Below are positions 13,980-22,244 of a DNA stretch of 51,794 bases, in pieces. Source of the DNA: Actinomycetota bacterium (lineage in GTDB: Bacteria; Actinomycetota; CADDZG01; JAHWKV01; JAOPZY01); assembly GCA_050693695.1 (NCBI GenBank), contig JBOGWM010000282.1, forward strand, positions 1-51,794. Reading direction: 5' to 3'. Under the pieces are notes generated by a model, which was given only the letters and a program-made list of their open reading frames with translations, searched no databases and had not been told where the DNA came from. A program made the position numbers and the translations under genes. Numbering within the stretch: position 1 is the first letter of the stretch; each line of letters starts with the position of its first letter.

Positions 13980-14861
13980 ATGGCCGTCAGAGCGGATACG
14001 GAGTGGGAGTGGGAGCTGGAAGAGGAGCTGGAAGGTGAGATGGAAGGCGAGGAGTTCCTTGGCACGATCGCCCGAGGGGCGGGGAGCCTCCTCGGAGGAC
14101 TGGGTGAGGGCGAGTTCGAAGAGGAGCTCGAGGGCGAATGGGAGGGGGAGCTGGAAGGCGAGCTCGAGGGCGAGGAGTTCTTCAGACGTATCGCCCGCGG
14201 GATCAGAGGTTTCGTCCGCCGAGCAGCCCCGGTCCTCCGTCGAGTCGCCCGGGTCGCCGCTCCGATCGTGGGGACGGCGGTGGGAGGTCCCCTGGGAGGC
14301 ATGATCGGGCGAGCCGCCGCCTCCGCCCTCGGCGAGGCCGAGCTTGAATACGAGTACGAAGGGGAGCTGGAAGGGGAGCTGGAAGGAGAAGAGGAGTTCG
14401 AGGAGGAGGCTGCGGCTCCTGTCACCTACCAGCAGGCGCAGGCGGAGCTCATGGCGGCGGTGGCTTCCCGGGCCCAGACCGAGGCCGAGGCCGAGGCTAT
14501 GGCGGGAGCGGCCGCGGTGGCTTCGATCTCTCCGGCGGACCGCGCGGCGCTTCGCGACGTCCTCCCGCACCTGGTTCGCGGCACCGCCGTCCTGACCCGG
14601 ATCCTCCGGAGCCGGCCGGCCACCCGCCCCGCGGTGCGGACCGTTCCCAGCATCGTCGCCAGCACCGCCCGCACCCTCACCCGCCGAGCCGCAACCGGCC
14701 AACCCGTCACCCGGCAGGCCGCGGGGAGGGTCATGGCCGCCCAGACCCGGCGGGTGCTCGGGCGTCCGCATGCATGCGCCCGAGCCCTTCAGCGCAACGT
14801 CCGGGCCACCCGGGCTGCGGCCTCCACAGGCCGGCCCCGCGCCGTGCGGCCCCGGCCTTGA
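13980..14861 (+). CDS. Orphan modular protein A (293 aa): three anionic E-x repeat blocks, a cationic amphipathic/glycine-zipper segment and a basic Arg/Thr/Pro-rich tail
   Basis: ATG with an AAGGAGG SD. Anionic blocks: TEWEWELEEELEGEMEGEEF, GEFEEELEGEWEGELEGELEGEEFF and ELEYEYEGELEGELEGEEEFEEE. Cationic segment: RRIARGIRGFVRRAAPVLRRVARVAAPIVGTAVGGPLGGMIG. The tail ...RPATRPAVRTVPSIVASTARTLTRRAATGQPVTRQAAGRVMAAQTRRVLG is paralogous to that of the next gene. Confidence 0.8.
   Translation: MAVRADTEWEWELEEELEGEMEGEEFLGTIARGAGSLLGGLGEGEFEEELEGEWEGELEGELEGEEFFRRIARGIRGFVRRAAPVLRRVARVAAPIVGTAVGGPLGGMIGRAAASALGEAELEYEYEGELEGELEGEEEFEEEAAAPVTYQQAQAELMAAVASRAQTEAEAEAMAGAAAVASISPADRAALRDVLPHLVRGTAVLTRILRSRPATRPAVRTVPSIVASTARTLTRRAATGQPVTRQAAGRVMAAQTRRVLGRPHACARALQRNVRATRAAASTGRPRAVRPRP
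14361..14384 (+). repeat. Perfect 12-nt tandem duplication (ggggagctggaa x2) inside the third acidic block
   Basis: Read directly from the sequence. It encodes GELEGELE. Similar imperfect GAG/CTG/GAA units occur at 14000-14060 and 14110-14185. Confidence 0.9.
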
Positions 14862-14923
14862 TGAGGCCATCCGGGCGAGGCGGCGGCCAGGCAGCGAGTG
14901 AGCTCTGAAAGGAAGGGACGACC

Positions 14924-15703
14924 ATGGGTATGTCCGCATACGAGCTTGAGGCCCTGCCCGAGCTCGAGGAGGAATACGAGCGGGAGGAAGAGCTGGAAGG
15001 CGAGTGGGAGAGCGAGGAGTTCTTCCGAGCCCTCGCGGGAGTGGCCCGCCGCGCAGCCCCCGCCTTGAGGGGAGTCGGACTGCGCGCGGCCAGGAGCGCT
15101 CTGGGTGGGCTCGGCGGCGTCGGCGGAGCGATCGGAGGGTACTTCGGGCCGAGCGGCGCCGCCCTGGGACGTGACCTGGGACAGACGCTCGGCCGTCATG
15201 CTCGGGGCTGGCTTCCGCAATCCGAGATCGAGGGCGAGTGGGAATGGGAGCTGGAGGCGGAGGTGAACCCCCTGCGGCAGGTCTACCCGGATGCGCTGAT
15301 GGAGCATCTGGGGCATGCCGCAGCCCAGACGGAGAGCGAAGAGGAGGCCGAGGCCTTTCTCGGAGCGCTGGTCCCCCTGGCGGCCCGGCTCATCCCACGG
15401 GTAGCGCCGGCCATCATGAGAGCCGCTCCGGGCCTGATCCGGGGCGTGGCGGGAGTGGCTCGCACCCTGAGAGCAAACCCGACGACCCGGCCCCTCGTCA
15501 GGACGCTCCCCACCATCGTTCACCGGACCGCCGGTTCGATCGCCCGCCAGGCCGCCGCCGGCCGGCCGGTCACCCCGCAGGGAGCGGTTCGGACCCTGGC
15601 CAGGCAGACCGCGGGTGTCCTGGGCAGTCCTCAGCGGTGCGTTCAGGCCTACCGGCGCTCCCGCGCCCTGGACCGGCGGTTCCATCACACCGCCTCCCAA
15701 TGA
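14924..15703 (+). CDS. Orphan modular protein B (259 aa), paralogue of protein A
   Basis: SD GAAAGGAAGGG. Anionic blocks YELEALPELEEEYEREEELEGEWESEEFF and EIEGEWEWELEAE flank RALAGVARRAAPALRGVGLRAARSALGGLGGVGGAIGGYFG. The tail ...NPTTRPLVRTLPTIVHRTAGSIARQAAAGRPVTPQGAVRTLARQTAGVLGSP aligns by eye with protein A. Confidence 0.8.
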   Translation: MGMSAYELEALPELEEEYEREEELEGEWESEEFFRALAGVARRAAPALRGVGLRAARSALGGLGGVGGAIGGYFGPSGAALGRDLGQTLGRHARGWLPQSEIEGEWEWELEAEVNPLRQVYPDALMEHLGHAAAQTESEEEAEAFLGALVPLAARLIPRVAPAIMRAAPGLIRGVAGVARTLRANPTTRPLVRTLPTIVHRTAGSIARQAAAGRPVTPQGAVRTLARQTAGVLGSPQRCVQAYRRSRALDRRFHHTASQ

Positions 15704-20712: not shown

Positions 20713-20774
20713 AGGTGCGCCGCCCGGTGAGGGCCAATCGGAGCAAGTCCGTAATCTGAATCAGGGGGAACGGG

Positions 20775-22244
20775 ATGACTGACGCAGATGCAAGTCTAGA
20801 GGAGTTTATTGAGTGGATGGATGAAGCGGTCTATGAGGCGCCGTTCCGGTCGGCCCGGGCGCCTGCCCGCCGCAGGCCCCCGACGGGACGGCAGGCCCGG
20901 AGGGCGACAACGCGAGCGCTTCAGCCTGCGCGTCCTGCCGTGGACATCAATCACGCGGTGGCTCGGAACCGAGTTCATAGACAGTCGCTGAGCTGGCAAC
21001 CATCTCTCGATGGCATCGTGCGGTATTTGGGATTCGGGACCAGGACGCCGGATGAGCCGCGGTTCGCCGAGGCGGTCGCGCGCTGGCAGCAGGATCAGAA
21101 CGGGCTCACGGTCGACGGCATCCTCGGGCCGCAGACGTGGGGGCGAATGCGAGGAGCGATCGGACCGGTCCCCTCCGTTGACATAGATCGTGCTATGCGT
21201 CGTAATCGCGACTATAGCCGGTCCCTGGGATGGGGAGCGTACGCTTCCACCATCTCCCGCCTCATCGGATTCGCGACCTCCTTTCCGAGCGAGCGGCAGT
21301 TCGCTGGGGCGACCGGGCGCTGGCAACGAGCCCAGGGAGGCCTCGTTGTGGACGGCATCCTCGGACCGAGGAGCCTGGCTCGAATGGAGTCGGCGCTGAG
21401 GCAGCCAGAGCTCGGTCTGACTCCGGATGGCCAGGCTGAGCTCTTCGTCACCCATATCCCGCCGATCCCCCCCGCCAGCGGGCCGTCCCGGATTCCGGGG
21501 GCGGAACTGGGTCACGAGATCCTGACTGAACGCGCCGCGAGGCGCGCCGGTATCGTCGCGGGGGATCCCTTGGATGCCGCACTTCGGGCAGGAGTAACCC
21601 GGGTGGACATCGGTAGAACGACCACCTTGCCTTTTGGCATCGAGCTTCCCTTGGAGCTTCCGGCCGCCCTCGTGCACGCCGTCGATCCCGCCGAGCAGTC
21701 GCGCCACGCCCTCCGTGGCGGGCCCGACCTGTGCCAAGACATGGCGACAGCTCTGAGGGGGGTCCGCAATCGTCTCATAGCCTTGCACGGCAACGCCCTG
21801 AGGGCCCCAACACGAGTCGCAGCCTTCGAGTCGATCGGCGAAGCGCTTCACTTGATCCAGGACTCGTACTCGCAGGCCCACACCGAGCGCGAATGGGCGC
21901 CGGCGCCGCCCCATCGGATCAGATACATCCGCTTCTTTGCCAGGGTGATCAATCCCTTCACGATCCCTCCCCGATCCCCGCTTATCCGAGGGAGGGCCCC
22001 TCACGAGCACCAGTTTCCGACGGACAACCGGGACAGCATCTTCAACCCGGGGGCAAGCCTGAAACCCGAAGCCTTGCGTGCCATCGACGCGAGCCACGAG
22101 TTCCTGGTGATGATCGTGCGGCATCTTCCAGGTCCCCCATCTTCCAGGACCGCTGCGGGCCTTCGTCGCTTCATGAATCGACACCTTGCACTTCACCCCA
22201 CCCCTCACGAGCCTGGGATGTTTCACCCGGGAACCTGTCCATGA
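20775..22244 (+). CDS. Protein with two tandem peptidoglycan-binding (PG_binding_1-like) repeats and a His-rich C-terminal domain (possible Zn-hydrolase/phospholipase C-like)
   Basis: The repeats VDINHAVARNR...FAEAVARWQQDQNGLTVDGILGPQTWGRM and VDIDRAMRRNR...FAGATGRWQRAQGGLVVDGILGPRSLARM are a PGB helical-bundle signature. The C-terminal domain contains ALHLIQDSYSQAHTE and PHEHQF. There is no signal peptide. Confidence 0.75.
   Translation: MTDADASLEEFIEWMDEAVYEAPFRSARAPARRRPPTGRQARRATTRALQPARPAVDINHAVARNRVHRQSLSWQPSLDGIVRYLGFGTRTPDEPRFAEAVARWQQDQNGLTVDGILGPQTWGRMRGAIGPVPSVDIDRAMRRNRDYSRSLGWGAYASTISRLIGFATSFPSERQFAGATGRWQRAQGGLVVDGILGPRSLARMESALRQPELGLTPDGQAELFVTHIPPIPPASGPSRIPGAELGHEILTERAARRAGIVAGDPLDAALRAGVTRVDIGRTTTLPFGIELPLELPAALVHAVDPAEQSRHALRGGPDLCQDMATALRGVRNRLIALHGNALRAPTRVAAFESIGEALHLIQDSYSQAHTEREWAPAPPHRIRYIRFFARVINPFTIPPRSPLIRGRAPHEHQFPTDNRDSIFNPGASLKPEALRAIDASHEFLVMIVRHLPGPPSSRTAAGLRRFMNRHLALHPTPHEPGMFHPGTCP

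Follow-up and report, generated by a model that had tools for sequence, protein, structure and literature searches.

What a compact row of genes does for bacteria, when nearly all of its products lack a known family, is the question raised by the locus described here. The locus lies on a 51.8-kb contig (JBOGWM010000282.1) from the metagenome-assembled genome (MAG) of an Actinomycetota bacterium, and this whole stretch of 51,794 nucleotides (nt), with a guanine-cytosine (GC) content of 67%, is the window referred to throughout. Seven open reading frames (ORFs), named A to G, follow one another on the + strand at 13980-22244 with intergenic gaps of 62, 60, 3, 14, 96, and 62 nt, and a LuxR-type gene points away from them across a spacer of 479 nt. 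A first-pass annotation had described this layout, and the coordinates and the 54% GC content of the spacer confirm it. The cassette proves to be real and widespread, with strong conservation and no earlier description, and it is new at the system level; its function we infer. The reading favored here, with a probability of about 0.4, is a LuxR-controlled arsenal of masked precursors, whose maturation would fall to protease C and whose release would need no secretion machine.

A fixed core and a variable slot

The first part of the answer comes from related loci. A set of 83 (80 fetched and three obtained by exact look-up) was compared with the window proteins by tblastn, and in essentially all of those long enough to show gene order, the succession A-B-C-D-E-F recurs, which means that these are real genes and not chance ORFs. 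Protein F has a relative in all 83 loci at a median identity of 73%. The core of E follows in 79 (40%), C in 74 (65%), D in 73 (38%), B in 69 (48%), and A in 68 (51%), the missing relatives being mostly due to short contigs. The LuxR-type regulator is likewise found in 68 loci (55%), and an amidohydrolase gene (H), which lies downstream of F and occupies 22355-23107 in the window, in 57 (68%). For G, the same comparison detects a relative in a single locus, at 37% identity. The fixed core consists of the LuxR gene, A, B, C, D, the E-core, and F, together with the Amidohydro_2 gene, and G is an occupant of a variable slot. An M20 dipeptidase usually accompanies the core as well and is absent from the window. 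The earlier view of the seven genes as one unit holds for A to F; G falls outside it, and the Amidohydro_2 gene had been missed. Two outcomes named beforehand as fatal to the idea of a single system, namely products from known but unrelated families and homologues that are never syntenic, did not occur, and synteny proved to be very strong.

Relatives of F number more than 3300 in the protein collection, all unnamed and none with a Pfam domain, and the best of them are 75-80% identical and come from other phyla. The roughly 3100 homologues of C are all “hypothetical” and also lack a Pfam domain. In a scan of one genome per species (185,579 representatives), 401 stretches encode an F relative. 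The carriers belong to at least nine phyla, with most loci in Acidobacteriota, and with Actinomycetota, Chloroflexota, Planctomycetota, Armatimonadota, Binatia, Myxococcota, and Pseudomonadota (Alpha-, Beta-, and Gammaproteobacteria) among the others. Among the cultured carriers are Paraburkholderia sp. PGU19, several Streptomyces that form a group, Silvibacterium bohemicum, and Silvibacterium strain ZG23-2. Every member of the cassette is a “hypothetical protein” in RefSeq, and no account of the cassette came to light when the literature was searched by theme, domain name, and RefSeq or UniProt accession. Three of the MAGs (L005, L006, and L018) are labeled “uncultured Heliomicrobium sp.,” a doubtful label, as their cassettes are closest to those of Blastocatellia and Chloroflexota.

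Identity to the window copy does not track taxonomy (78% in Blastocatellia, 78% in Anaerolineae, and 73% in Streptomyces), so the cassette moves horizontally. One near copy sits on a 2.4-Mb Paraburkholderia replicon, and plasmids also carry the distant F-domain operons described below. A phage origin was considered and rejected because F is absent from a collection of 50,697 phage records. The spread in identity, from 73% for F to 38-40% for D and E, reflects different constraint and not age. In one metagenomic locus (L088:7748-10026), the position of F is filled by four short genes of 106, 253, 112, and 297 amino acids (aa), which suggests that F is disrupted or frameshifted there or that the assembly contains errors.

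The core proteins

The first-pass annotation had picked out two paralogous proteins (A and B), an HExxH...ExxxD protein (C), two TIG repeats on E, and two peptidoglycan (PG)-binding repeats on G, and all of these stand. The core is otherwise dark. When all products were run against Pfam, NCBIfam, PADLOC, and PHROGs, the matches were limited to peripheral domains (GerE, TIG, PG_binding_1, and Amidohydro_2), and nothing above threshold was obtained for A, B, C, D, the E-core, or F. PADLOC-DB gave no family for any of the seven products. Single-sequence and profile searches of PDB with C, D, the E-core, G, and the G family likewise turned up nothing meaningful, and structure searches with F and C against PDB, and with F against BFVD, were equally empty, in agreement with the earlier statement that the gene set corresponds to no named system.

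Proteins A (13980-14861, +, 293 aa) and B (14924-15703, +, 259 aa) share 43% identity and are built from blocks of opposite charge. In A, three acidic (E-x)n blocks, with net charges of -12, -14, and -15, enclose between them a short Gly-rich segment and a glycine-zipper segment that is cationic and amphipathic (residues 67-118, net +10), and the C-terminal domain is Arg-rich (net +19). For the 67-118 segment, the helical hydrophobic moment is about 1.0-1.1, and its neighbors are the blocks of -14 and -15. B has a pair of acidic blocks and a single cationic Gly-rich segment, and it shares with A the basic C-terminal domain, which is 130-150 aa long; the cationic Gly-rich segments of the two proteins range from +8 to +10. 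The acidic blocks run directly into an aromatic residue, at EE|FLGTIARG and EE|FFRRIARG in A and at EE|FFRALAG in B. Neither protein is rich in Cys, Ser, or Thr, and neither has a match in the four family libraries. Across phyla, conservation extends over all of A, and in B it is limited to the acidic blocks and the C-terminal half.

Protein C (15764-17107, +, 447 aa) carries HEVSH at residues 227-231 and NRELFAD at 268-274, and H227, E228, H231, E270, and D274 are invariant in 31-32 orthologues. This is the combination of HExxH and a downstream Glu in an ExxxD-type motif by which gluzincins are recognized, and C can be regarded, on these motifs, as a putative gluzincin-type metallopeptidase. 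No peptidase family in Pfam or NCBIfam matches it, and PDB returned nothing by sequence or profile. Its AlphaFold2 model is all-alpha (predicted local distance difference test [pLDDT] 69), and Foldseek found no neighbor for it in PDB, a result to be read with the fact that the model is unreliable at residues 133-220, just upstream of the HExxH motif. Protein D (17111-17656, +, 181 aa), a helical protein whose gene starts 3 nt past the stop codon of C, is the least conserved member of the core, and its profile matches nothing in PDB beyond designed helical bundles. The idea that D is a PMEI-like inhibitor was set aside as speculation only: a sub-threshold match to the PMEI four-helix fold appears in just 4 of 25 orthologues.

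Protein E (17671-19488, +, 605 aa) combines a core of about 400 aa (approximately 17671-18930), for which the profile finds nothing in PDB, with two TIG/Ig-like repeats at its C-terminus (approximately 18930-19488; TIG and CoaZ repeat matches). Elsewhere, the Ig-like modules of E (CarboxypepD_reg and SdrD_B) are N-terminal or absent. In Silvibacterium bohemicum, a 410-aa protein with no family match (L084:7459-8691) lies between D and a minimal E of 413 aa, and it may stand in for the Ig-like extension. Upstream, the frame of E in the window stays open as far as a GTG at 17554 and so shares about 100 nt with the end of D; the start taken here is the ATG at 17671, which has a good Shine-Dalgarno sequence (AGGGAGGAG).

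Protein F (19585-20712, +, 375 aa) is the most conserved member, with 70-78% identity across phyla. It had been called simply globular, a description that its AlphaFold2 model (pLDDT 74, predicted template-modeling score 0.70) does not bear out: the predicted protein is all-alpha, with a helical hairpin (residues 2-56), a disordered linker (58-92), and a helical domain (93-343). The model has no Foldseek neighbor in PDB or BFVD, and the searches with F and C gave nothing better than an E value of 0.1 and template-modeling scores of about 0.1-0.2. Rows pointing to alpha-pore-forming toxins (AhlB, SmhB, YaxA, and NheA) were judged to be noise, and F has no hydrophobic segment. A paralogous relationship between F and the E-core was also dismissed (hhalign probability 0.1).

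More distant proteins with an F-type domain, at 23-29% identity and with hidden Markov model E values of 1e-13 to 1e-21, occur in unrelated and nearly unannotated operons on a plasmid of Tolypothrix sp. PCC 7712 (L086:11029-12876) and on replicon pBPJTT of Burkholderia pyrrocinia (L087:11212-13017 and 16842-17837). These operons hold S8 peptidases and a PG-binding protein or a 1254-aa N-acetylmuramoyl (MurNAc)-L-Ala amidase, which means that F-type domains recur beside protease and wall-active enzymes, and the operons look like a sister class of systems. They also carry several paralogous proteins of 350-480 aa that belong to no known family, and the one from Burkholderia includes a sigma-54 activator, a DUF3467 protein, a cyclase, and a patatin.

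Cargo, a common tag, and the export problem

The slot between F and the Amidohydro_2 gene spans 0.1-6.5 kb, and in most loci its last gene is the M20 dipeptidase (CNDP/DUG1/Sso-CP2 type). The remaining occupants are directed at the cell envelope. They are stand-alone proteins of 180-1000 aa in which PG_binding_1 or OmpA modules are fused to Aspzincin_M35, DUF4056, Extensin-like_C/M15, VanY/LdcB-like, or Het-C domains. Such modules are also joined to a trypsin-like motif (TAGHC), seen by sequence and without a family match; the slot further holds phospholipase A2-like and class-A beta-lactamase-like proteins, and there are sometimes several cargo genes per locus. DUF4056 has been placed in the Lipocone superfamily (CapCone), whose members attack lipid head groups, in the same clade as the lipid II phosphatase toxin TelC (bioRxiv 10.1101/2025.01.14.632903). 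Several loci, such as those of Silvibacterium bohemicum and Streptomyces sp. NBC_01478, keep the full core without lytic cargo. A family of proteins of about 100 aa directly follows F in five Acidobacteriaceae loci (L015:11288-11587, L034:11222-11533, L035:11195-11527, L038:11294-11575, and L056:11278-11577), and small ORFs also follow the cargo genes in L088; these small proteins are candidates for immunity proteins or chaperones.

In the window, the slot is occupied by protein G (20775-22244, +, 489 aa), with PG_binding_1 repeats at approximately 20946-21389 (E 1.4e-8, plus an internal duplicate) and a C-terminal domain at approximately 21417-22244. The C-terminal 275 residues define a family of about 60 proteins. 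Among 32 that were aligned, F10 is nearly invariant, and H33, D64, H97, H145-x3-D149-x5-H155, H198, D203, and D206 are invariant. The nine ligands of the phospholipases C (PLC) of B. cereus and C. perfringens come in the order aromatic N-terminus, H, D, H, H-x3-D-x5-H, and H-x3/4-acidic. Judged by this pattern of ligands, the C-terminal domain of G belongs to the Zn-PLC/P1-nuclease superfamily. PF00882 (Zn_dep_PLPC) is matched by 12 of the 32 aligned relatives (best E 3.4e-6), and three database relatives carry it as a precomputed domain; G itself is unmatched, and its link to PF00882 is transitive. The family profile finds no PDB sequence, and a direct similarity of G to Het-C was rejected, being confined to the H-x3-D motif. 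The slots of L065, L088, and L090 also hold relatives of G. In L065 the relative is directly followed by the M20 gene, and in the window 110 nt without an ORF separate G from protein H (22355-23107, +, 250 aa), an Amidohydro_2 metal-dependent hydrolase (PF04909, E 2.5e-21). H has an N-terminal HxH motif (MIIDAHCH) and only weak relatives in PDB, of the LigW/gamma-resorcylate decarboxylase type.

PG-binding peptidases that occur together with a dipeptidase and an amidohydrolase could belong to housekeeping, that is, to envelope remodeling or PG turnover in differentiation, dormancy, or cell separation, with the two hydrolases recycling the products. The chromosomal neighbors in the window are housekeeping genes, and the strong conservation of the sequences also speaks for such a role. 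However, the cassette is found in just about 400 of the 185,579 species representatives and is patchy within phyla, its polymorphic cargo extends to phospholipases, an M35 peptidase, and a protein with a trypsin-like motif, and there is no export route for enzymes that act outside the membrane. Housekeeping is the least probable of the explanations considered here.

What many of the interchangeable enzymes have in common with the core is a short acidic tag. In its strict form, it is the motif E-phi-E-phi-E, where phi is L, F, W, Y, M, I, V, A, or G. All 65 A proteins carry it, as do 61 of 66 B proteins and the C-terminal tails of 58 of 82 F proteins, and it is found at a terminus of 18 of 37 cargo proteins (slot proteins of at least 180 aa from related loci). 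It is missing from all 70 C proteins and all 49 M20 proteins, and among flanking control ORFs it stands at the terminus of 3 of 384. Looser versions are present in many other cargo proteins. Within the window, the strict motif is confined to A and B, plus four isolated matches, and F lacks the acidic C-terminal tail that most of its orthologues carry. In the G family, the tag lies directly before the conserved aromatic residue, 11-26 residues upstream of the GHE histidine, as in the junctions ...EEFEGEGDY|FVTK..., ...YGEFESGADH|FVVE..., and ...RELEYEAQRAPEP|FVTE.... G-type members in a phage-like neighborhood have W at the aromatic position and no tag. The tag of G in the window is degenerate, with SLEEFIEW at the N-terminus and QAEL|FV at the junction. 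The start chosen for G matters to the tag hypothesis: NCBI uses the second ATG (475 instead of 489 aa, the difference being the region 20775-20816), and the longer form opens with the acidic amphipathic stretch SLEEFIEWMDE, like the tags on other cargo.

One could consider, tentatively and as something that may well prove wrong, that the tag is the heart of the matter. The cassette would then be a hitherto unrecognized way of mobilizing proteins without a secretion machine, in which the acidic tag couples interchangeable envelope enzymes to the core in monoderm and diderm soil bacteria from at least nine phyla, and the distant F-domain operons, with their S8 proteases and amidases, would follow the same principle. 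The core would be made up of A and B as membrane-active proteins with patterned charge, a metalloprotease of a novel kind, and D, the E-core, and F, each with a new fold, and it would arm the enzymes, bring them out of the producer, and carry them into target envelopes.

The same tag brings to mind the loading of cargo into a particle, which was one of two hypotheses of the first-pass annotation. In a self-assembling particle, whether intracellular or released, or in a condensate, F (perhaps with E and D) would form a scaffold or shell, A and B would be charge-patterned linkers, and the E-x-E tags would load the cargo. A terminal tag that is common to the core and to unrelated cargo, and nearly absent from flanking genes, fits packaging. 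The 70-78% identity of F, with D and E drifting to 38-40%, is the pattern of self-assembling proteins with multiple contacts; the alternating anionic and cationic blocks of A and B would suit multivalent electrostatic assembly, and the Ig-like modules of E could decorate a surface. Short N- or C-terminal peptides shared by unrelated proteins near a conserved core are also known from the targeting peptides of encapsulins and bacterial microcompartments (BMC), but there the tags are not acidic and alternating and the cargo is metabolic, whereas here it degrades envelopes. No capsid, HK97, BMC, sheath, tube, or other shell-type fold or family was found among the products, the model of F is all-alpha, looks monomeric, and contains long disordered parts, the F of the window lacks the tag, and it is not obvious what the invariant HExxH protein and the two hydrolases would do in a shell. 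A particle is decidedly unlikely.

The repetitive build of A and B leads to another explanation. Eukaryotic precursors that hold several copies of an antimicrobial peptide have anionic spacers or propieces between them. A and B resemble them in alternating anionic (-12 to -15) and cationic Gly-rich (+8 to +10) segments and in being linked to a protease gene; they differ in their bacterial host, in having no secretory route, and in the strong conservation of the segments and the basic domain. In a ribosomal peptide or natural-product pathway, A and B would be multi-core precursors, C, M20, and the amidohydrolase would trim them, D, E, and F would act in tailoring or as a scaffold, and the wall-active genes would be accessory. 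Two repetitive precursor-like proteins next to three hydrolases (C, the CNDP/DUG1-type M20, and Amidohydro_2), with a pathway-type LuxR regulator attached, suit this explanation, as does the fact that loci without cargo keep precursors, hydrolases, and regulator. PKS or NRPS genes (polyketide or nonribosomal peptide synthesis) also lie nearby in two loci (L085:14075-17938, Streptomyces, and L090:14932-20780, metagenomic), although they are a few kb downstream on the opposite strand and may be a coincidence. However, maturases of ribosomally synthesized and post-translationally modified peptides (YcaO, LanB/C/M, radical S-adenosylmethionine, and ATP-grasp enzymes) and leader-binding elements were not found in the window products or related loci, and there is no known transporter, export gene, or self-resistance gene. 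A and B are 260-290 aa long, with a large conserved basic C-terminal domain and a composition that is not Cys/Ser/Thr-rich, and the tag is also on F and on enzymes of 250-740 aa, which are not precursors. A peptide pathway is very unlikely.

Envelope-degrading enzymes have to reach their substrates, and the cassette offers them no export route. Export was judged by a crude hydropathy test, in which a transmembrane (TM)-like segment is a 19-residue window with a Kyte-Doolittle mean of at least 1.9. As had been claimed, no window protein has a signal-peptide-like N-terminus or a TM-like segment, the highest value being 1.78, in C. The same test found no signal-like N-terminus in about 70 orthologues of each core protein, the exception on the TM side being a borderline internal helix in 7 of 70 C orthologues, and none of the 37 slot proteins has either feature. 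Sheath, tube, and baseplate proteins of contractile injection systems (extracellular ones and type VI secretion) or phage tails were not found with Pfam, NCBIfam, or PHROG. With export signals, transporters, and TM proteins all missing, and with monoderms as well as diderms among the hosts, release by permeabilization or lysis of producer cells is likelier than passage through a trans-envelope machine.

In type 10 secretion, a holin, an endolysin, and a spanin lyse a subpopulation of cells and release signal-less toxins (Yersinia entomophaga, PMC10847048). The cassette is similar in that signal-less proteins must exit, wall-degrading enzymes are co-encoded, and a dedicated transcriptional regulator is present; across monoderm and diderm hosts alike, moreover, the model would hold only if release needed no envelope-spanning machine. 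It differs in having no holin (no TM segment) and no spanin, in a window without a lysozyme- or endopeptidase-type endolysin (G being PLC-like), and in six core proteins that have no counterpart in that system.

The cell that is lysed could also be the whole purpose. In self-directed lysis or abortive defense, a trigger such as phage infection or stress would free C from D, A and B would permeabilize the membrane from inside in the manner of holins, and the wall- and lipid-degrading cargo would then attack the cell's own envelope and kill it before a phage matures. All components are predicted to be cytoplasmic, the cargo resembles signal-less phage endolysins, no immunity gene adjoins G, and a G-type enzyme is also found in a phage-like neighborhood. 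Swappable effectors and the variable Ig-like module of E fit an arms race between sensor and effector, and adaptor modules that connect core and effector are typical of conflict systems (PMC7159879). On the other hand, PADLOC models match no product, and NTPase (nucleoside triphosphatase), nuclease, and known sensor are all absent. F, C, and H, at 65-73% across phyla, are far above the usual identity of defense genes, many loci have no lytic cargo, and the cassette sits here among housekeeping genes and not in a defense island. Such a defense is unlikely, but it deserves to be kept in mind.

The regulator and a possible masked arsenal

The cassette may be switched on by its own regulator. The LuxR/GerE-type helix-turn-helix protein (13048-13500, -, 150 aa) matches PF00196 GerE at residues 74-127 (E 4.4e-17), and GerE is the one domain detected, with no autoinducer-binding or receiver domain in Pfam or NCBIfam. 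In the related loci, its gene lies upstream of A in divergent orientation or else follows the hydrolase genes. The spacer (13501-13979, +) is lower in GC than the window, and a box, WWGYGAMTVB, lies upstream of A in 53 of 63 loci across phyla, compared to about 0.1 expected per zone. The window copy (AAGCGAATAG, 13908-13917) is about 72 nt before the start codon of A, and the general form is AAnATGyGACTAG. A second element (“box 1,” GTCGCACATTCGAGCGA-like) was captured by a simple pattern in only 9 of 63 loci, and no claim is made for it; it sits about 40-70 nt further upstream, and the window version, found by eye, is GTTTCACATAGTTTAGGTAGC. The upstream elements may represent a promoter of an unusual type or the site at which the linked LuxR-type regulator binds. 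Scans for sigma-70 promoters and intrinsic terminators were uninformative, with no sigma-70 consensus detected. The conserved box and the linked LuxR gene mean that the cassette carries its own regulator and a conserved cis element.

A GGAGG-type Shine-Dalgarno sequence had been assigned to each of the seven genes; it is clear at A, D, E, and F and weaker at B (GGAAGGGA), C (GCGAGGAT), and G (CAGGGGGAA). The genes on both sides of the cassette (10864-13051 and 23121-25223) are ordinary chromosomal ones, with no adjacent integrase, transposase, or prophage genes and no GC anomaly except the lower-GC spacer. Upstream are a gene for a DUF1232 protein and one (12020-12988, -) that is ROK-type sugar kinase-like by eye only; downstream, a gene for an SRPBCC/polyketide-cyclase-like protein is followed by one for a metallophosphoesterase.

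In the favored reading, the arsenal of masked precursors, the products would be made in the cytoplasm without export signals and held in an inactive form. The blocks in which E alternates with hydrophobic residues would neutralize the cationic glycine-zipper segments of A and B, and on the cargo they would form pro-regions. Once the regulator switches the operon on, C, which D may restrain until induction, would cut at the junctions between acidic block and aromatic (EE|FF, EE|FL, and D-x|FV). Cutting would free the membrane-active parts of A and B, and it would give PLC-type cargo such as G the free N-terminal aromatic that is required at the metal site. The freed segments would breach the membrane, so that PG-binding hydrolases and lipases would gain access first to the producer's own envelope, with release by lysis, and afterwards to that of its neighbors. 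E, with its swappable Ig-like modules, and the constrained F could be a scaffold or targeting part at which the acidic tags dock, and the M20 dipeptidase and the amidohydrolase may clear or process peptide by-products.

By analogy, the cassette would work most like a protease-activated zymogen arsenal, the example being Mpl, PlcB, and LLO of Listeria monocytogenes. The first residue of the Listeria phosphatidylcholine PLC, W1, is essential; W1F remains active, and one extra residue before W1 inactivates the enzyme (PMC10576769). Its propeptide is removed by the thermolysin-type metalloprotease Mpl, and the enzyme synergizes with a pore-former (PMC10576769, PMC2132530). In the cassette, too, the gene of an HExxH protein, here a putative metalloprotease, is linked to that of a predicted Zn-PLC-superfamily enzyme with a pro-region before the W1-equivalent aromatic, the residue at that position is F, and membrane-active partners, proposed to be A and B, are encoded alongside. 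Unlike Mpl and PlcB, which are secreted by Sec, the cassette products have no signal peptide. C has no detectable similarity to thermolysin/M4 or any other peptidase family, A and B are unrelated to cholesterol-dependent cytolysins, and PLC-type cargo, which many loci lack, is only one alternative among many.

A conserved core with hypervariable, envelope-directed effectors and horizontal spread is also the logic of polymorphic toxins (PMC3482391) and of effector-associated domain (EAD) systems (PMC7159879), and in the latter a short module common to core and effectors could couple them, as the tag might here. The effectors of the cassette are separate proteins with a tag of about 5-30 residues, however, and not the C-terminal tips of a long trafficking protein. 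The family libraries found no PAAR, LXG, Rhs, MuF, TPS, or other secretion marker, and no immunity gene lies beside G in the window. The tag is a low-complexity acidic repeat, unlike the folded EAD or Death-like domains, and the cassette has no NTPase.

The first-pass annotation had proposed, as its other hypothesis, an arsenal of cationic peptides or pore-formers processed by the metallopeptidase and deployed with a lytic or lipolytic effector. The placement of G in the Zn-PLC superfamily, its pro-region-like tag, and a slot that is polymorphic for envelope enzymes lend that proposal real support. The conservation of A over its whole length and the many loci without a lytic effector weaken it, and processing by the protease is putative; the earlier interpretation is thus supported in part.

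Several further points weigh against the masked arsenal. Conservation across phyla throughout A and in the C-terminal half of B is more in keeping with a structural or scaffold role than with antimicrobial peptides free to evolve, and the several loci that keep the full core without lytic cargo mean that the core must have a function of its own. The zincin fold of C was not recovered, its model being unreliable at 133-220 and without a Foldseek neighbor or a peptidase family. The F of the window has no tail, the tag on G is degenerate, and the shorter NCBI start drops the first part of it. A cut at the G junction would also separate the catalytic domain from the PG-binding repeats. The 110-nt gap after G holds no immunity gene, which is unusual for weapons directed at kin, and the 70-78% identity of F across phyla is left unexplained by the model. 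Cleavage, membrane activity, and release, the mechanistic part of the reading, we infer throughout.

Six co-inherited proteins, with more than 3000 relatives each (measured for F and C) and present in about 400 species representatives, have had no family, structural neighbor, or literature, and one of them, F, is as conserved across phyla as core cellular machinery. The tag is simple and searchable, and it is tied to swappable, signal-less enzymes that degrade walls and membranes. If the tag and core are an arming or delivery route, they would represent a new class of bacterial antagonism or lysis systems that is independent of envelope type. This would explain how dozens of “cytoplasmic” PG-binding enzymes of soil bacteria reach their substrate, and it would offer a portable tag-plus-protease logic for the controlled activation of lytic enzymes. 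Even if the function differs, there would now be a context, with partners that can be tested, for several abundant dark protein families.

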